Source: an uncultured Sphaerobacteraceae bacterium
GTDB lineage: Bacteria; Chloroflexota; Chloroflexia; Thermomicrobiales; UBA6265
Assembly: GCA_964622205.1 (NCBI GenBank)
Contig: CAZUPA010000004.1
Location: forward strand, 1,622 to 62,187
Direction of reading: 5' to 3'
DNA: 60,566 bases
Part shown: positions 6,640 to 13,033 of the stretch, piece by piece
How the letters are laid out: each line of letters starts with the position of its first letter
Numbering within the stretch: the stretch's first letter is position 1
The notes under the pieces: generated by a model
What the model saw: the letters and a program-made list of their open reading frames with translations, nothing else
Told to the model about the DNA's origin: nothing
The model's database searches: none
Program-made: the position numbers and the translations under genes

Positions 6640-7410
6640 ATGACTGCTCTCCCGCACCGCCCGTTCACCCGCCGTGCCCTGCTCGGCGGAGCGTCGATCG
6701 TGGGCGTGGGCGCCTGGGCCCACCGCGCCAGTGGACGCCAGGCTTCCGACCCCGTCGTGGAAGGAGACTGCGAAGACGAACCAGCCGTCAGGATGCTGTT
6801 CAACTGGCGGGCTGGTCTGCCCGTCTACCAGTCGGTCGCGGAATCCGGGCCCCAGCTCGACTGGCAACCCTTCAACCACCCGGACTTCCTCGGACCGTTC
6901 CTCATTCCTCCTGGATGGACCGGCTCCGCGGCCTGGGCCGCCAGCTTCACTCGCGACGGGGTTCCCGAGTGGCGGGACGAGCCGATGAGTCTCCCCCAGT
7001 TGACCCTCTCCCGCGTCACCTCACCCGATCGCGATGCGTCCTTCGAGTACGCCATCGGGTCGATTCAGAACGCCCTCCTCACCACCCAGCAATCCGCGAC
7101 TGTCGCCAAACAGAGTGTCCTTGGCGCCAACCCTCGCCTGCGCTCCGTCTGCTCGGTCGACGACCAGGGAAACGCCCTTGCTCCCGGCTGGTTCTCCGCT
7201 GACCGCCACCGCTCGAGTCTCCTCATCACCTTTGGCACGGCCCTCCCGTTGCCAAGCGAGGTCCTTCCCGGCACCGTCGTCTCCTTCAACAGCATGTTTG
7301 GGCGCCGCCGTGAGATGGAAGACCTCATGTACGACGTCTTCCTCCGGATTCTCTTCCAGTTTCTGGGCGGTGGGAGCGGCGATCCGACGCCTACCCCGAC
7401 ACCCACCTGA
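6640..7410 (+). CDS. Tat-exported hypothetical protein
   Basis: Twin-arginine signal FTRRALLGGASIVGVGAWA. The C-terminal tail is GGGSGDPTPTPTPT. I recognise no family. Confidence 0.6.
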   Translation: MTALPHRPFTRRALLGGASIVGVGAWAHRASGRQASDPVVEGDCEDEPAVRMLFNWRAGLPVYQSVAESGPQLDWQPFNHPDFLGPFLIPPGWTGSAAWAASFTRDGVPEWRDEPMSLPQLTLSRVTSPDRDASFEYAIGSIQNALLTTQQSATVAKQSVLGANPRLRSVCSVDDQGNALAPGWFSADRHRSSLLITFGTALPLPSEVLPGTVVSFNSMFGRRREMEDLMYDVFLRILFQFLGGGSGDPTPTPTPT

Positions 7411-7419
7411 CCGTTCGAA

Positions 7420-7452
7420 GATATTGACAATCATCTATATCCTGGCTATTCT
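7420..7452 (+). promoter_or_regulatory. arsR promoter with an overlapping ArsR-type operator O1
   Basis: TTGACA (7424-7429), 17-nt spacer, TATTCT (7447-7452). The ATG at 7459 lies 7 nt after the -10, with no SD, so the mRNA looks leaderless. The 22-nt site GATATTGACAATCATCTATATC matches O2 at 17 of 22 positions. Confidence 0.55.
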
Positions 7453-7458
7453 GCAAGC

Positions 7459-7842
7459 ATGACAACGACCGTACGTGTGATCCAGCCTGACAATTCCTGT
7501 TGCCGCAATGTGAACGAGCCTTCCGTTCTGGAGGGTGACACCCGAGGGCAATTGCTTGGCGTATTCAAGTCGCTTGCCGATGGCACACGTCTCGATGTCT
7601 TCCGGTTAATCGCCGCGCAGGACGAACCGATTTGCGCCTGCGACATCGTCGATCGGTTCGATGTCAGCCAGCCAACGATTGCCCACCACCTGAAGGTGCT
7701 GCGGCAGGCGGGGTTGATCTCGGTATCGCGCCGGGGTGTCTGGGCCTATTACGCGGTGGCTCCGGGCGGAATCGAGGCGCTGGAGCAGTTCCTTTCGATG
7801 ATAGGTACGCGGCGGCCGCGCGTGCTGGAGCGTGCCGGGTAG
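7459..7842 (+). CDS. arsR: ArsR/SmtB family metal(loid)-responsive repressor
   Basis: Winged HTH: LADGTRL.VF.L, ICACDIV (CxC in helix 3), SQPT.AHHLKVL..AGL. It also has an N-terminal vicinal Cys pair (S-C-C at residues 13-15). Confidence 0.85.
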   Translation: MTTTVRVIQPDNSCCRNVNEPSVLEGDTRGQLLGVFKSLADGTRLDVFRLIAAQDEPICACDIVDRFDVSQPTIAHHLKVLRQAGLISVSRRGVWAYYAVAPGGIEALEQFLSMIGTRRPRVLERAG

Positions 7843-7866
7843 GCCGGTACTCTTTTTTTGGGATTG

Positions 7867-7888
7867 GATATAGACAGATGTCTATATC
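7867..7888 (+). promoter_or_regulatory. Perfect 10-2-10 palindrome, candidate ArsR operator O2
   Basis: GATATAGACA-GA-TGTCTATATC lies directly upstream of the flavoprotein gene RBS (GAAGGAG). It follows a T7 tract at 7853-7859. Confidence 0.6.
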
Positions 7889-7903
7889 GTGAAGGAGCAG
7901 GTC

Positions 7904-9346
7904 ATGGATCGACAGCAATTGCCGGTACTGGTGATTGGAGCGGGACCGGTCGGACTGGCCGGCGCCGCCCACCTCGTGTCGCGCGGAATCGAGCCGCTCG
8001 TGCTCGAACGTGGCGACTCGGTAGGCGCCAGCGTGCGCGAATGGGGACATGTCCGCTTCTTCTCTCCGTGGAAGTACTCGATCGACGATGCGGCCCGGTC
8101 GCTGCTGGCTCCCACCGGCTGGATCGAACCCGAGCCGGAGGCGTTTCCGACCGGAGACGACCTCGTCAACCGCTACCTGCGACCCCTGGCCGAGGTGCCC
8201 GAATTAAAGCCGTGCATCCGGTATGGCGCCGAAGTGGTGGCGGTCACCCGCATTGGATTCGACAAAATGAAGTCTCCCGGGCGGGACGACGCTCCCTTCC
8301 TGGTGGTGACGCGAACCGGTGGCGACGAGCAGGTGATCTGGGCACGGGCCGTGATCGACGCCTCTGGAACGTGGACGCGGCCGAACCCCCTCGGTGCATC
8401 GGGCTTGCCGGCAATCGGCGAGCGTGCCGCGCGCGATCGCATCGCCTACGGCATTCCGGACGTGCTGGATGCTTCCCGGGAGCGATATGCCGGGAAGCGC
8501 GTCCTCGTGGTCGGCGGCGGCCACTCTGCCTTCAATGTATTGTTGGACCTGATCGACCTCGCCGCTGCCGAACCGGAGACGACCATCGCCTGGGGGATCC
8601 GCAAGCCGCTGGAGCGCATGGCCAACCTCTTCGGCGGCGGCATCAACGATGCCCTCCCTGCCCGGGGAGAACTCGGCGCCCGGGTTCGGGAGCAGGTCGC
8701 GCGGGGCCGGCTGGAACTGGTGACCGGGTTGCGAATCGCCCGGATCGAACGAGGGATCGGTGGGTTACTGGTGCTCGGCCAGGACGAAAGCCAGGTGCTT
8801 GGGCCGTTCGACGAGATCGTTGGCGCGACTGGCTTCCGGCCAGACCTGGACGTGGTCTCCGAACTGCGGCTGGCGCTCGATCCCGCCGTGGAAAGCCCTG
8901 TCACCCTCGCCCCGCTGATCGATCCCAACGTGCACAGCTGTGGATCGGTGCCGCCCCACGGCGCGGAGGAACTCCGGCATCCGGAAACCGATTTCTACAT
9001 CGTCGGTATGAAAAGCTACGGGCGGGCGCCGACCTTCCTGATGCTGACCGGGTATGAGCAGGTGCGGTCGGTGGCCGCCGCCATCGCGGGCGATTGGGAT
9101 GCGGCCCGCGATGTGCGCCTGGTCCTGCCCGAGACAGGCGTCTGCTCATCCTCGAGTGTGCTCGGCGAGCGTGGCGTCTCCTGCTGCGGAACCGAAGTGT
9201 CGGCGGATGTGAGTGAAGGCGCGAGTTGCTGTGGTGGCTCCGAACCGGCGGCTGTCGTTGCCGGTGGCACGTTCTCATGTTGTGCGGAATCCGCCCCTCA
9301 GGTGATCCAGCTTGCGGCGATTGGCAAGGGCGGAGCTTGCTGCTGA
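7904..9346 (+). CDS. FAD/NAD(P)-binding oxidoreductase (ArsO/flavin-monooxygenase-like) with a Cys-rich C-terminal tail
   Basis: Two Rossmann motifs are present: VIGAGPVG and VVGGGHSA. The position between arsR and acr3 matches the ars-linked flavoproteins described in actinomycetes. The last ~68 aa carry nine Cys, including four CC pairs. Confidence 0.7.
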   Translation: MDRQQLPVLVIGAGPVGLAGAAHLVSRGIEPLVLERGDSVGASVREWGHVRFFSPWKYSIDDAARSLLAPTGWIEPEPEAFPTGDDLVNRYLRPLAEVPELKPCIRYGAEVVAVTRIGFDKMKSPGRDDAPFLVVTRTGGDEQVIWARAVIDASGTWTRPNPLGASGLPAIGERAARDRIAYGIPDVLDASRERYAGKRVLVVGGGHSAFNVLLDLIDLAAAEPETTIAWGIRKPLERMANLFGGGINDALPARGELGARVREQVARGRLELVTGLRIARIERGIGGLLVLGQDESQVLGPFDEIVGATGFRPDLDVVSELRLALDPAVESPVTLAPLIDPNVHSCGSVPPHGAEELRHPETDFYIVGMKSYGRAPTFLMLTGYEQVRSVAAAIAGDWDAARDVRLVLPETGVCSSSSVLGERGVSCCGTEVSADVSEGASCCGGSEPAAVVAGGTFSCCAESAPQVIQLAAIGKGGACC

Positions 9347-10452
9347 TGGAAACCTCATTGACGTCGGGCGCTCAGCGATCTGCATCGCAGGGGCGCCCGG
9401 ATCGGCTGGGCACGATCGACCGCTTCCTGCCGCTCTGGATCGTGCTTGCGATGGTGGCCGGAATCGGCCTCGGACGCGTCTTTCCGGACCTTGGCGAAGC
9501 GCTCGACCGGGTCAAGGTCGCCGGGGTTTCGCTGCCAATCGCCATCGGCCTGCTCTGGATGATGTATCCCGTACTGGCGAAGGTCCGCTACGAATCGCTT
9601 GGCCGGTTCCAATCACAGGGCCGGTTGCTGGGCCTCTCGATGGTACTGAACTGGCTCGTGGGACCGCTGCTGATGTTCGGGCTGGCCTGGGCCTTCCTGC
9701 CCGACGAACCGGCCTATCGCAATGGTCTCATTCTGATCGGGTTGGCTCGCTGCATCGCCATGGTGCTGATCTGGAACCAGCTCGCCTGTGGCGATGGCGA
9801 GGTGGCGGCCGTGCTGGTGGCCATCAACTCCGTGTTCCAGATCGTGATGTACTCGGTGCTGGGCTGGTTGTTCCTCACCGAGATACCCCAGTGGTTCGGC
9901 TCCTCCGGCACGGTGGTCGATATCTCGATGGGCGAGATCGCGAAAAACGTCGCCATCTTCCTCGGCATACCGCTCCTCGCGGGGTTCCTGACCCGCCTTA
10001 TCCTGGTGCGGAAGCGCGGCGAACAGTGGTACGAGCGGACGTTCCTGCCGCGAATCGGTCCCACCGCCCTGCTTGGCCTCCTCTATACCATCGTCATCAT
10101 GTTCGCCATGCAGGGCGATCGCCTGCTGGACCAGCCGTGGGACATCCTGCGCATCGCCCTCCCCATGGTCATCTACTTCGGCGTCATGTTCTTCGTTGCC
10201 TTCATGGCGGCCCGGAAGATGGGCTTTCGGTACGAAGAGACGGCCGCCATCTCGTTCACCGCCGCCGGCAACAACTTCGAGCTGGCAATCGCGGTCGCGA
10301 TTGGTGTGTTCGGCATCAGCTCCGGCGAAGCGCTCGCCGGGGTGGTTGGCCCGCTGATCGAGGTGCCCGTCCTGGTGGCATTGGTGTACGTATCGCTCTG
10401 GTTGCGGGAGCGGCTGTTCCCGCGCGAAGCAACTGAAGGGAGGCTGGCATGA
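9346..10452 (+). CDS. acr3: ACR3 family arsenite/antimonite efflux permease
   Basis: ACR3 blocks are present: DRFLP.WI, LLWMMYP.LAKVRYE, the ARCIAMV conserved Cys motif, and about 10 TM segments. The ATG overlaps the upstream stop (TGATG). Confidence 0.9.
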   Translation: METSLTSGAQRSASQGRPDRLGTIDRFLPLWIVLAMVAGIGLGRVFPDLGEALDRVKVAGVSLPIAIGLLWMMYPVLAKVRYESLGRFQSQGRLLGLSMVLNWLVGPLLMFGLAWAFLPDEPAYRNGLILIGLARCIAMVLIWNQLACGDGEVAAVLVAINSVFQIVMYSVLGWLFLTEIPQWFGSSGTVVDISMGEIAKNVAIFLGIPLLAGFLTRLILVRKRGEQWYERTFLPRIGPTALLGLLYTIVIMFAMQGDRLLDQPWDILRIALPMVIYFGVMFFVAFMAARKMGFRYEETAAISFTAAGNNFELAIAVAIGVFGISSGEALAGVVGPLIEVPVLVALVYVSLWLRERLFPREATEGRLA

Positions 10453-10694
10453 ATCGAGATGTGGGAACACTCGCGCGCGAAGACATTGCGGCGCGCGTCA
10501 TGCGGATGGTGACCGAACTGTGTGCCGACGAAACGTGTCCGATCCAGCCTGTATTGGAGCAGTGCGTCGATGATGCAATTTCATCGTACTGGCCGAACAC
10601 TGTCGAGACATACACACCCCTGCTGGCCTTCCGGGATGTGCGGGAGTGCATTCGCCAGGGTTCCTGCCCTCCACAAACGACGATGCCCTCATGA
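10449..10694 (+). CDS. Small five-Cys protein, hypothetical (possibly related to the helical N-terminal domains seen next to LMW-PTP arsenate reductases)
   Basis: 81 aa. It has ATGA overlaps with both neighbours. The motifs ELCADETCP, EQC, RECIRQGSCP are visible. The family assignment is from memory only and is not verified. Confidence 0.5.
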   Translation: MNRDVGTLAREDIAARVMRMVTELCADETCPIQPVLEQCVDDAISSYWPNTVETYTPLLAFRDVRECIRQGSCPPQTTMPS

Positions 10695-11425
10695 CGAGGA
10701 TCGCACTCCTGAGCGACATGCACGGCAACAGCGCGGCCACCGAGGCTGTCCTGGCCGATATCGACGTGCAGGAACCCGACGAGGTGATCTGCCTGGGTGA
10801 TCTGGTTGGCTACGGTGCCCGGCCGAACGAGTCGATCGACCTGGTCCGCGAGCGGTCGATTCCCACCATCATGGGCAACTACGACGACGGCGTCGGCTTC
10901 GACCGTGACGATTGCGGATGCGCCTACCGGGACGACGGCGAGCGCCAGCGCGGGCAGCAGTCGCTGATGTGGACCCGCTCGGTGGTGACGGATGACCGCA
11001 AGGCCTACCTCCGGTCCTTCACGCCCGAACTTCGCCGGGAAGTCCACGGCGTGCGCATCCGGCTGGTCCACGGGAGCCCGCGCCGGATGAACGAGTACCT
11101 TTTCGCCGACCGCGACGCCGCATCTTTGGCCAGAATCGCCCGGAGCGCCGATTGCGACGTGCTGGTATTCGGCCACACCCATGTGCCGTGGACGCGCGAC
11201 ATCGAAGGGATTCGATTCATCAATACCGGCAGCGTGGGCAAGCCGAAGGACGGCGATCCGCGTTCCTCCTGGGTCATGCTCACGATATCGCCGGATGGAA
11301 CGGTCGGCAGCGACCTGCACCGGGTCGACTACGACATCGCCGCGATGACCGCCGCTATCCGCGAGGCGAGTGGCCTGCCCGATCGTTTCGCAATCGACAT
11401 CGAAACCGGGGGACGCCACGGATGA
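10691..11425 (+). CDS. Metallophosphoesterase, YfcE/MJ0936 type
   Basis: Metal-ligand blocks: LSDMHGN, CLGDLVGYG, GNYD, LVHGSP, FGHTH, NTGSVG. It carries an unusual insert, FDRDDCGCAY. It has ATGA overlaps on both sides. Confidence 0.8.
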   Translation: MTRIALLSDMHGNSAATEAVLADIDVQEPDEVICLGDLVGYGARPNESIDLVRERSIPTIMGNYDDGVGFDRDDCGCAYRDDGERQRGQQSLMWTRSVVTDDRKAYLRSFTPELRREVHGVRIRLVHGSPRRMNEYLFADRDAASLARIARSADCDVLVFGHTHVPWTRDIEGIRFINTGSVGKPKDGDPRSSWVMLTISPDGTVGSDLHRVDYDIAAMTAAIREASGLPDRFAIDIETGGRHG

Positions 11426-11763
11426 CGACATCGTTCACCGCCAGCGGCAAGCCGAAACGCTCGCTGGAATCGATCCGGGTCGAACGCCAGTACTCCCACG
11501 TCATCCGGCTGTTCCTCGCCGGCGAGTTGCCGAACTTCGATCATCAACGGCACGTGCATGTGGCGAACATCCTGCGCCATATCCCCTGTGGGCGGGAACT
11601 GATGCACCTCGGATTGCAGGTGATGGCGTACCGCGCGTACATTCCATACAAATACAATGTCGATATCACCGATCGCAACTGGGACCAACTGGACGGCACG
11701 CTGCCGGACCCGGCGGCATTCGCCGACCTGCCCGGCGGCGCGAGCGGAGTGACCAACCAATGA
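11422..11763 (+). CDS. Hypothetical protein (113 aa), no recognisable family
   Basis: It is translationally coupled (ATGA) on both sides within the ars-like operon. His-rich segment FDHQRHVHVANILRH. Confidence 0.5.
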   Translation: MTTSFTASGKPKRSLESIRVERQYSHVIRLFLAGELPNFDHQRHVHVANILRHIPCGRELMHLGLQVMAYRAYIPYKYNVDITDRNWDQLDGTLPDPAAFADLPGGASGVTNQ

Positions 11764-11987
11764 CAACGCAGGTCGTTACGGAATCGACGATTACCTGTCC
11801 GCACTGTGGCTTTTCCCGGCTGGAAATCATGCCCACCGAAGCCTGCCAGATTCGCTATTCGTGCCCGGCATGTGCCGAAGTGCTGAAACCACGGGCCGGT
11901 GATTGCTGCGTCTTCTGCTCCTACGGCACGGTCCCGTGCCCACCCATCCAGGTGGATCGGTCCGCCTGCGGCCCTCCGCTCTCGTAA
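11760..11987 (+). CDS. GDCCVxC-motif small metal-binding protein
   Basis: 75 aa. Motifs CPHC...CPAC...GDCCVFC...C. The family is known from heavy-metal resistance neighbourhoods. ATGA overlap with the upstream gene. Confidence 0.7.
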   Translation: MTTQVVTESTITCPHCGFSRLEIMPTEACQIRYSCPACAEVLKPRAGDCCVFCSYGTVPCPPIQVDRSACGPPLS

Positions 11988-12013
11988 CGCGGGAACGCGA
12001 CCTTGAACGGCCC

Positions 12014-13033
12014 TCACCACCCCGCGTTCCGCGCCAGTTCCAGCGCGTATTCCGGATACCACTGCCCGGCTGGCGGCGCTCCCCGGCACTCTCCATCCGA
12101 TTCCCCTGGCCGCTTGATCCACAGGTAGGCGTCCACGAGCGGATCGGTTGTCTCCACCGTCGCCGGTGTCCCCAGTGCTCGCCCCGGCGGGTTGCACCAC
12201 GCCTCGGCGTCGCCCTCTTCCCACGGCCCATTCCCGTTGCGGCTCGTGTCGATCACGAACGGCGTGCCGCCCTCCGCTCCCAGCGCGTCCGAAATCCCCT
12301 GCCCGTATTCGATGGTCACATCGGTTGTGTGGAAGTTGGAGACGTTCAACGAAAACCCGGTCGCTTGCTCGATGCCCGCCAGCTCCAGTCGCCGTGCCGT
12401 CTTCACCGCCGGATGCCACGTCGCGTTCCCCGCGTCCACGTACACATCCACCAGCGGTTTCGCCTCCAGTGTCTCCACCGCGAAGCCGAGCAGCGCGTAC
12501 CGCTCCGCCTCCTGCTCCGCGCTCAGGCAATCTGTCGCCGCCACCGCGTCCGGCTCCAGGATGACCACCGCTGGCTGCTCGCCGATCCCTTCCGCCGCCT
12601 CGCTGATCCACGTCCGGTACGTCTCCGGGTCGTTCGCACCACCGGCCGAATACAGCCCGCAATCCCGGTACGGAATCGTGTAGAACACCAGCACCGGCAA
12701 CGCTCCGGCATCCACGATTTGCGTCACCCGTTCGCCGATTTCTCCGCGCGGATCGGCCGTCCAGTCGCCGAACCAGTCCGCCTGCGGCTGCTCGCCGAGG
12801 CGCTCCATCAGCGCGGCATCCTCCGGCCGGGAATCGGCCCATTCCTCCGCCTGCTTCGCCCCCGGCGACTCAGGGTCCACGAAGAACGTCACGTCCGCCG
12901 CCGCCAGGTTGCGCTCACCGGTCGTCGCCACCGGTGTCGCCTGCGCCACCCCCGTAACGACATTCGCGAAAAGCCCACCGATCACCACCGCGATCGCCAG
13001 CATGATCCGCGCGTCGTGCCATTTGCACTGCAT
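12014..13033 (-). CDS. Glycoside hydrolase family 6 (cellulase/cellobiohydrolase-like), secreted
   Basis: Signal peptide is present. GH6 blocks: YxIPxRDC (YTIPYRDCG), ILEPDA, NVSNF, IDTSRNG, WIKxPGESDG. GGAGGTG lies 5 nt before the ATG. Confidence 0.85.
   Translation of the reverse strand: MQCKWHDARIMLAIAVVIGGLFANVVTGVAQATPVATTGERNLAAADVTFFVDPESPGAKQAEEWADSRPEDAALMERLGEQPQADWFGDWTADPRGEIGERVTQIVDAGALPVLVFYTIPYRDCGLYSAGGANDPETYRTWISEAAEGIGEQPAVVILEPDAVAATDCLSAEQEAERYALLGFAVETLEAKPLVDVYVDAGNATWHPAVKTARRLELAGIEQATGFSLNVSNFHTTDVTIEYGQGISDALGAEGGTPFVIDTSRNGNGPWEEGDAEAWCNPPGRALGTPATVETTDPLVDAYLWIKRPGESDGECRGAPPAGQWYPEYALELARNAGW

Follow-up and report, generated by a model that had tools for sequence, protein, structure and literature searches.

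A metallophosphoesterase in place of ArsC as the most likely arsenate reductase of a Chloroflexota ars locus

Does an arsenic-resistance locus that has no arsC gene have to do without arsenate reduction? This question is raised by a locus at positions 7420-11987 (+ strand) of a ~60-kb stretch of DNA (hereafter, the window) from an uncultured Chloroflexota bacterium (Thermomicrobiales-like). An open reading frame (ORF) check of the locus gave seven ORFs, all on the + strand, within 7459-11987, which encode in this order an ArsR repressor, a flavoprotein with a cysteine-rich tail, the arsenite efflux permease ACR3, an 81-aa protein (S81), a metallophosphoesterase, a 113-aa protein (S113) and a GDCCVxC protein (Table 1). 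An earlier description made from the DNA letters (the sequence-only reading) had taken the locus for an ArsR-controlled seven-gene operon without arsenate reductase, in which unusual passenger genes are translationally coupled at a fixed stoichiometry and the substrate range may extend to mercury. We conclude, with a probability of roughly 0.75, that the locus is a complete ArsR-regulated detoxification system for both arsenate and arsenite, whose reductase would be the metallophosphoesterase rather than an ArsC.

The claim that the locus encodes no ArsC, ArsA/D, ArsH, ArsM or ArsI was borne out by profile searches and phmmer. None of the seven proteins matches an ArsC model of Pfam or NCBIfam, and phmmer detected no homologue of classical ArsC (low-molecular-weight (LMW)-phosphatase or glutaredoxin type), ArsM, MIP or thioredoxin in the window, the ArsC queries being one LMW-phosphatase ArsC and an E. 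coli ArsC sequence. The step from there to a system lacking arsenate reductase does not follow, as the metallophosphoesterase carries the CGC motif and the metal ligands of a Car1-type enzyme and, in sister loci, takes the place of the LMW-phosphatase ArsC.

Car1 of Rufibacter tibetensis is described as a metallophosphoesterase that reduces As(V) and for which Cys74 and Cys76 are essential, in the account of Shen et al. (2024, Mol Microbiol 122:201) as cited in PMC12124457. The latter paper also reports metallophosphoesterase genes with ~40% identity to Car1 in ars operons of Paraclostridium and related isolates, and that a Paraclostridium strain with such a gene methylated As(V) (PMC12124457). 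Uncharacterised metallophosphoesterase genes are further reported to be widespread in ars operons of Mucilaginibacter. The existence of this reductase class is therefore already known, having been published in 2024, and what we consider here is whether the window encodes a member of it.

The window protein belongs to the Metallophos_2/YfcE group (PF12850, E = 8.5e-25; TIGR00040, 65.6 bits vs a cutoff of 56), and its set of metal ligands is complete (D9, H11, D37, N63, H127, H162 and H164) and invariant in the alignment. It contains a CGC pair, Cys75-Gly-Cys77, which is invariant in all 24 Chloroflexota homologues (24/24) and recurs at 74/76 in ars-operon homologues from plasmids of Hymenobacter, Adhaeribacter and Paraclostridium and at 75/77 in Rubrobacter; the numbering differs from 74/76 because the window copy has one extra N-terminal residue. 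The closest cultured relatives are the plasmid metallophosphoesterases of Hymenobacteraceae (Hymenobacter and Adhaeribacter; the family of Rufibacter), with 46-51% identity, and the Paraclostridium-type protein, which is equated with Car1 in ISME Communications, is 39% identical. All six plasmid contexts that we inspected for the homologues were ars operons. In every ars-linked CGC-type metallophosphoesterase examined, including those of L057-L060, the canonical GNHD/E is replaced by GNYD (window 10874-10885), a His-to-Tyr change that may be linked to weak phosphatase activity. Car1 itself is said to be coupled to thioredoxin and to retain a residual phosphatase activity that is Ni-dependent.

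The genomic neighbourhoods point the same way. A conservation scan anchored on S113, with one genome per GTDB species, yielded 50 loci, all from metagenome-assembled genomes and mostly of Thermomicrobiales/Chloroflexia with a few of Gemmatimonadaceae, Acidobacteriota, Myxococcota and Planctomycetota; these were queried with ArsM, MIP and LMW-phosphatase ArsC in addition to the seven proteins of the window. A common scheme recurs, namely ArsR, then flavoprotein or ArsM, then ACR3 or MIP, optionally S81, optionally the metallophosphoesterase, then S113, and optionally GDCCVxC, LMW-phosphatase ArsC or ArsR-flavoprotein at the end. Among the 39 non-redundant loci that carry S113 and were used for a count of mutual exclusivity, 23 have the metallophosphoesterase, 8 have an LMW-phosphatase ArsC, 8 have neither and none has both (Fisher p = 2e-4), and the S113 gene abuts or overlaps whichever of the two genes is present. 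In a second set of seven loci, anchored on the flavoprotein instead of S113, a metallophosphoesterase gene follows ACR3 or MIP in six. Because of the CGC pair, the full set of metal ligands, the ars context, the identity to the Hymenobacteraceae proteins and the replacement of ArsC, the metallophosphoesterase is most likely a Car1-type arsenate reductase.

The order of the seven genes is reproduced exactly in two related loci (L008 and L070), a syntenic sibling (L076) lacks only S81, and the same gene set is shuffled in dozens of loci. Since the order recurs in related loci, a chance neighbourhood was rejected, in agreement with the sequence-only reading, which had judged the genes unlikely to be chance neighbours; the tight junctions are kept in relatives as well. 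The five start/stop overlaps on which that reading relied were confirmed base by base (TGATG at 9344-9348; ATGA at 10449, 10691, 11422 and 11760), and with a crude gene call such overlaps occur at 5/5 of these junctions vs ~3/22 of the other same-strand junctions in the window. The fixed stoichiometry that had been read into them goes too far, since the genes of S81 and S113 are each absent from some otherwise identical operons. The seven genes form a mosaic of modules and not a fixed seven-part machine.

S81 and S113 are frequent in these operons but dispensable: among the six flavoprotein-anchored loci with a metallophosphoesterase, S81 is present in five and S113 in three. Neither protein matches a Pfam family, sequence searches of the PDB with single sequences or profiles found no relatives of either, and tblastn against 72,556 plasmids gave no match. 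PADLOC defence models did not match any of the three small proteins, and literature searches on GDCCVxC and MSMEG_6209 returned nothing useful. S113 has ~360 close homologues with 70-90% identity, all named hypothetical, which share the invariant motif FxHxRHVHVANxLxHxPxGRxLMHLGL and have no conserved Cys; an exact-sequence lookup found no identical record. Its AlphaFold2 model is all-alpha with a predicted local distance difference test (pLDDT) score of 92 and a predicted template modelling (pTM) score of 0.85, and a Foldseek search of this model against the PDB gave no fold assignment (best E-value 2.6, TM-score ≤0.34). Of 1.84 billion representative proteins, no more than 49 clusters belong to the family, most of them fragments, and we found no informative domain fusion among these. 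The neighbourhoods of distant homologues in Acidobacteriota, Myxococcota and Planctomycetota contain no ars genes and share no consistent theme, and therefore give no clue to an ancestral function. In Acidobacteriota (Blastocatellia), shorter distant homologues stand alone between a PhoH/YbeY-type cluster and a two-subunit molybdoenzyme of the xanthine-dehydrogenase type; distant homologues lie at 3468-3884 of L043, 7968-8261 of L045 and 7965-8285 of L050.

Because its gene abuts that of either the metallophosphoesterase or the LMW-phosphatase ArsC, and never both, S113 can tentatively be regarded as a dedicated partner of cytoplasmic arsenate reduction that serves two unrelated reductase families and that forms, together with S81, an accessory layer that had gone unrecognised in the ars systems of Chloroflexota and of a few further soil phyla, although we hold this to be a speculative proposal with the odds somewhat against it. 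S113 might, for example, bind or present arsenate, discriminate between phosphate and arsenate, or serve in metal loading. The gene of S81, in the loci examined, is always directly downstream of ACR3 or MIP; the ACR3 of the window is itself a clear member of its family (TIGR00832, 438.6 bits vs a cutoff of 282.8, with an SBF match). Three cysteines of S81 (Cys39, Cys67 and Cys73) are invariant across the family, 14 of whose 15 members match NF046112, the three-helix-bundle dimerisation domain MSMEG_6209_Nter, the best E-value being 2.6e-7; for the window copy, the score is 18.4 bits (E = 0.002) and falls short of the 25-bit cutoff. AlphaFold2, with 7 close homologues, predicts three helices at a pLDDT of only 60. 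Three thiols in a small helical dimer would suit an As(III) site, and S81 might act as a chaperone or buffer.

The flavoprotein has two Rossmann motifs and an ATG motif of the FMO type, and is Pyr_redox_3/FMO-like. Its C-terminal tail contains four Cys-Cys pairs (427/428, 442/443, 459/460 and 479/480), and this tail is conserved among the homologues together with the internal HSCG and ETGVC motifs, so that the Cys-Cys tail appears as a trait of the family and not a peculiarity of this locus. More than 8000 homologues were scored, all under generic names, and in cultured Streptomyces, Rhodococcus, Bacillus, Ensifer and Pseudomonas their genes adjoin those of ArsR or MarR and of arsenical efflux pumps, so that the protein is far from unique to this locus. 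On plasmids, the order ArsR - flavoprotein - ArsK/MFS is found in Ensifer adhaerens, Streptomyces (including FR-008) and Rhodococcus; a Bacillus cereus plasmid has ArsR - flavoprotein, a small hypothetical gene, a second NAD(P)/FAD oxidoreductase and ArsN1, and a Pseudomonas nitroreducens plasmid has MarR - ArsN1 - flavoprotein - ArsD - ArsA. The window protein is 53-55% identical to those of the Ensifer adhaerens plasmid (arsR-FADox-arsK) and the Pseudomonas nitroreducens plasmid (MarR-ArsN1-adjacent). ArsV is an NADPH-dependent flavin monooxygenase, controlled by ArsR or MarR-ars, which oxidises methylarsenite (MAs(III)), trivalent roxarsone (Rox(III)) and Sb(III) (bioRxiv 10.1101/2021.08.12.456183; PMC10080717). 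From the match between these contexts and the published descriptions of arsV, we consider it probable, though with some reserve, that the flavoprotein belongs to the ArsV family.

Two other assignments of the flavoprotein were rejected: ArsO (NF040505), to which it scores 54 bits vs a cutoff of 425 with only residues 13-227 aligned, and a MerA-like metal reductase, as there is no Mer family match and the motifs are FMO-like. Beside these, we observed that the flavoprotein gene overlaps the following MFS/ArsK gene by 4 nt in Ensifer and Streptomyces and is separated from it by 5 bp in Rhodococcus (L061, 5001-7633; L063 and L064, 4980-7633; L066, 3983-7652). The gene of a second NAD(P)/FAD oxidoreductase (~356 aa) is often found next to them: in Rhodococcus and Bacillus it is located downstream, whereas in Streptomyces it is upstream and divergent. 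The arrangement has the look of a recurrent module.

The last protein matches NF041374 with 96.8 bits (cutoff 40) over profile positions 1-57 of 58 and contains the motif GDCCVFC. Its homologues occur in 8 of the 39 Chloroflexota ars loci, at variable positions. On plasmids, the GDCCVxC gene is the last of units composed of MerR/ArsR, MerT/MerTP/MerF and GDCCVxC without MerA, which upholds the earlier statement that such proteins are linked to mercury loci; a substrate range reaching mercury finds no support here beyond the presence of the gene. On Cupriavidus necator H16 pHG1 (L072, 1026-2725), the GDCCVxC gene follows DUF1326 and DUF2182 genes in place of a MerT-like gene. On plasmid pHA of Hymenobacter sp. 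APR13 (L057, 6093-11006), an ArsR-DUF6428-metallophosphoesterase-GNAT-ACR3 operon stands back to back with an ArsR-MerTP-GDCCVxC unit; Car1-type enzymes and GDCCVxC proteins are thus near neighbours in Bacteroidota too, but in separate, opposed units.

How firmly can arsenate reduction be assigned to the metallophosphoesterase? Several points weigh against it. The likeness to Car1 is deduced from motifs, residue numbering and context and from proxies with 39-51% identity, and the protein also passes the generic YfcE phosphodiesterase model TIGR00040. Rubrobacter has a metallophosphoesterase together with two ArsC genes, so that exclusivity with ArsC is not universal. By phmmer, neither thioredoxin nor thioredoxin reductase is encoded in the window. 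Moreover, S81 and S113 are absent from some sister operons, and distant S113 homologues occur in Acidobacteriota outside ars contexts. One rival explanation is that the protein is an ordinary YfcE-like phosphodiesterase or phosphatase, which might act on arsenate esters, on nucleotide-arsenate adducts or under phosphate stress, while As(V) is reduced by an enzyme encoded elsewhere in the genome, of which our view covers 60 kb. The best PDB relatives, generic phosphoesterases including an Ap4A (diadenosine tetraphosphate) hydrolase, would fit this explanation, as would the match to TIGR00040 and the Rubrobacter case. We nevertheless find it unlikely, given that the invariant CGC insertion is missing from the nearest solved paralogue (3rqz), that GNHD has become GNYD in all ars-linked members, that the enzyme and ArsC exclude each other beside S113, and that reductase activity has been published, in the cited account, for the family prototype Car1.

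Still less likely, and in our judgement very improbable, is an arsenite-only efflux operon, or one for a broader range of soft metals such as mercury, that has no arsenate reductase and whose four passengers form a new complex of fixed stoichiometry. The Car1 signature of the metallophosphoesterase and its substitution for ArsC in sister loci stand against the arsenite-only part, for which the absence of a classical ArsC from the window can be cited. The link of GDCCVxC to MerT-type genes elsewhere would speak for soft metals, but no other protein of the seven matches a Mer family. Five consecutive overlapping junctions would speak for such a complex; an obligate complex is argued against by the individual dispensability of S81 and S113 and by the presence of GDCCVxC in only 8/39 loci. 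A different division of labour, which we regard as doubtful yet less remote than either of the above, would make the flavoprotein a dedicated NAD(P)H-dependent disulfide reductase instead of an ArsV-like oxidase, one that would re-reduce the Car1-type enzyme either directly or with S81 or the GDCCVxC protein as intermediary. Its Cys-Cys tail could shuttle electrons as high-Mr thioredoxin reductase or MerA do with their C-terminal redox tails, many family members are annotated as thioredoxin reductase by the Joint Genome Institute (JGI), the N-terminal region resembles YpdA/thioredoxin-reductase-like proteins, the window encodes no thioredoxin system, and in L011 and L038 the GDCCVxC gene directly follows that of the flavoprotein. 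However, we saw no CxxC redox centre in the flavin domain, and the motifs of the protein are FMO/class-B-like (Pyr_redox_3 and the ATG motif); cultured bacteria pair the family with MFS/ArsK pumps with no metallophosphoesterase or ArsC adjacent, and metallophosphoesterase operons without an adjacent flavoprotein exist, for example on the Hymenobacter and Adhaeribacter plasmids. An ArsV-like role appears to us the better account of the flavoprotein, with this thiol-reductase role of the tail as its chief alternative.

Turning to regulation, the ArsR of the window has Cys14-Cys15 and Cys59-x-Cys61, and the N-terminal CC pair and a C(A/V)C motif are kept in nearly all arsR genes of the related loci. 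A palindrome scan of the window for a 22-bp box of 10-2-10 form gave two matches vs 0.00 expected, both adjoining arsR (O1 and O2 in Table 1). The box ATATTGACAaTCATCTATAT is also found upstream of arsR in L008, L011, L026, L001, L004, L013 and L069, and at least 10 other loci have ATAGACnnnnGTCTAT between arsR and the gene that follows it (flavoprotein, ArsM or ACR3). The geometry of the predicted arsR promoter is kept across related loci, and the arsR mRNA is probably leaderless because only 6 nt separate the -10 hexamer from the ATG. Directly after the arsR stop, a T-run is present in most related loci; together with the following TTG it may serve as -35 region for a second promoter. Relatives retain the two boxes, the T-run and the leaderless geometry irrespective of the gene behind arsR. 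Control of the locus by ArsR, as the sequence-only reading had proposed, is plausible and well supported by two palindromes whose position beside arsR is conserved in other loci. As to the seven-gene operon of that reading, the seven genes and their overlaps stand, while the layout is another: with a hairpin and T7 run and a second operator after arsR, it seems to consist of an autoregulated arsR and, behind it, a six-gene unit with an operator of its own.

Table 1 Features of the locus
Feature	Positions	Strand	Description
Operator O1 (putative)	7420-7441	+	Imperfect 10-2-10 palindrome GATATTGACAATCATCTATATC; overlaps the arsR promoter at its -35 hexamer and spacer
arsR promoter (predicted, sigma-70-like)	7424-7452	+	TTGACA-17-TATTCT; 10/12 consensus matches
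arsR	7459-7842	+	ArsR/SmtB repressor, 127 aa; HTH_5, NF033788 83 bits
Terminator-like hairpin	7832-7859	+	Includes the arsR stop codon; 7-bp stem (5 G-C pairs), then T7 run TCTTTTTTTG
Operator O2 (putative)	7867-7888	+	Perfect 10-2-10 palindrome GATATAGACAGATGTCTATATC; shortly before the Shine-Dalgarno sequence of the flavoprotein gene
Flavoprotein gene	7904-9346	+	480 aa, two dinucleotide-binding domains, Pyr_redox_3/FMO-like; probably ArsV-type
ACR3 gene	9346-10452	+	Arsenite efflux permease, 368 aa; TIGR00832, SBF
S81 gene	10449-10694	+	Acidic 81-aa protein, five Cys; predicted three-helix bundle
Metallophosphoesterase gene	10691-11425	+	244 aa, Car1-type, candidate arsenate reductase
S113 gene	11422-11763	+	113 aa, His/Arg/Lys-rich, all-alpha (model), small orphan family
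GDCCVxC gene	11760-11987	+	75 aa, 10 Cys; NF041374

Building on what was observed (gene content, motifs, conserved order, operators and exclusivity with ArsC), we infer the biochemical activities and propose the following course. When no metalloid is present, ArsR would occupy both palindromic operators, O1 over the leaderless arsR promoter and O2 before the six structural genes, and binding of As(III) to its thiols (Cys14/15 and Cys59/61) would release it. The Car1-type enzyme would take As(V) at its binuclear metal site and reduce it via Cys75 and Cys77, whose disulfide would be recycled by a thiol reductant encoded elsewhere, and ACR3 would export the resulting As(III). The Cys-Cys tail of the flavoprotein would most likely capture trivalent species (methylarsenite, aromatic arsenicals and Sb(III)), which would be oxidised with NADPH and O2 in the manner of ArsV. 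S81 and the GDCCVxC protein are probably As(III)-binding proteins that buffer the metalloid or pass it on, and S113 would be an accessory of the reduction step.

The borders of the locus are as follows. The flavoprotein most likely starts at ATG 7904 and not at GTG 7889, with a Shine-Dalgarno sequence AAGGAG at 7892-7897 and a resulting length of 480 aa that equals those of the homologues. At the 3' side, a convergent GH6 glycoside hydrolase gene (12014-13033, - strand) has its stop only 26 bp (11988-12013) from that of the GDCCVxC gene, and the unit therefore ends at 11987; a terminator scan of 11988-12013 revealed no clear terminator. Directly upstream of arsR, at 6640-7410, lies a gene for a 256-aa protein with a twin-arginine-like N-terminus (RRALLGGASIVGVGAW) and a C-terminal PTPTPTPT tail, which has no family match in the gene table of L070; the gene is shared with L070, whereas L076 does not have it upstream of arsR. 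Frameshifts split genes of the flavoprotein, ACR3, the metallophosphoesterase, S113 or ArsC into 2-3 adjacent ORFs in several MFD-named long-contig metagenome-assembled genomes (L025, 8910-10333; L032, 8854-10361; L048, 7163-11352; L046, 6851-8785), which are assembly errors or pseudogenes. Some related loci have a PBP_like_2 gene, whose product resembles periplasmic phosphate-binding proteins, between a second arsR and ACR3 (L067, 8986-10113; L077, 9118-9948), followed in L077 by an unannotated 104-aa gene; it might be an arsenate/phosphate-binding component of these ars operons.

For annotation, the consequence is that pipelines which count arsC would score this organism and many soil Chloroflexota as reductase-negative, although arsenate is most likely reduced there by what bears the generic name "metallophosphoesterase family protein"; this holds equally for dozens of related metagenome-assembled genomes as well as plasmids of cultured Bacteroidota, Firmicutes and Rubrobacter. 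The overall understanding of arsenic resistance is not overturned by the locus. What is new here is the accessory pair S81 and S113, from two uncharacterised families of small proteins, and the recruitment into an ars operon of a GDCCVxC protein, moved there from mercury-transport contexts. The genomic behaviour of S81 and S113 ties the two to the arsenate-reduction and arsenite-exit steps and makes them candidate accessory proteins of metalloid handling, and S113 stands out because its fold is an orphan and its gene adjoins that of one or the other of two unrelated reductases.

Several known systems can be set beside the locus. ArsD is a metallochaperone with a thioredoxin-like fold and Cys12/13/18. 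S81 and the GDCCVxC protein resemble it by functional analogy only, as small cytosolic proteins with at least three conserved Cys whose genes adjoin that of an As(III) pump; there is no sequence relationship, S81, S113 and the GDCCVxC protein having no ArsD match in Pfam or NCBIfam and S81 matching NF046112 instead, and no ArsA ATPase is present here to receive As(III). The GDCCVxC protein agrees with the NF041374 GDCCVxC (seleno)proteins in its full-length match, its GDCCVFCSYGTVPCPP motif and an N-terminal CxxC...CxxC, and differs from the plasmid units in that its gene is the last, overlapped gene of an ars operon without a MerT-like partner. From a mer operon (MerR-type regulator, MerT/MerP/MerF and MerA) the locus differs further, as none of its products other than GDCCVxC matches a Mer family in NCBIfam or Pfam and the architecture of the flavoprotein is FMO/Pyr_redox_3 and not that of MerA. 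ArsO of the arsRBOCT cluster of Streptomyces sp. FR-008 shares with the flavoprotein the ars association, the use of NAD(P)H and a similar N-terminal Rossmann region, but is ~350 aa long and has no Cys-Cys tail; Streptomyces sp. FR-008 and S. anthocyanicus each have two neighbouring genes, one for ArsO and the other for a homologue of the window protein. With ArsV of Paracoccus sp. SY, Ensifer adhaerens ST2 and Achromobacter sp. As-55, the flavoprotein has in common the As(III)-responsive repressor and the coupling to an arsenical efflux pump, and the contexts of its homologues (ArsR/MarR upstream, efflux pump downstream) match the published arsV contexts when compared by description; the partner pump is ACR3 here and an MFS transporter there. 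The window copy has four Cys-Cys pairs vs two or three in proteobacterial and Streptomyces homologues.

The likeness to Car1 lies in a calcineurin-like metallophosphoesterase of ~245-260 aa with all ligands of the binuclear site, a CxC at the same position and a gene in an ArsR-controlled operon with ACR3. The window enzyme comes from Chloroflexota whereas Car1 comes from Bacteroidota, and its gene is flanked and start/stop-overlapped by those of S81 and S113, which are absent from the metallophosphoesterase operons inspected in Bacteroidota, Firmicutes and Rubrobacter. Lastly, classical arsR-acr3-arsC operons (with a thioredoxin-coupled LMW-phosphatase ArsC, as in Bacillus and Corynebacterium, or of the Sinorhizobium aqpS-arsC type) share with the locus an ArsR with As(III)-binding Cys, an exit through ACR3 or MIP and, if our assignment is right, a cytoplasmic As(V) reductase whose fold derives from a phosphatase, and sister loci use an LMW-phosphatase ArsC in the same slot. 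Here, an ArsC of either type is replaced by a metallophosphoesterase that most likely fills its role, and flavoprotein, S81, S113 and GDCCVxC genes are added.

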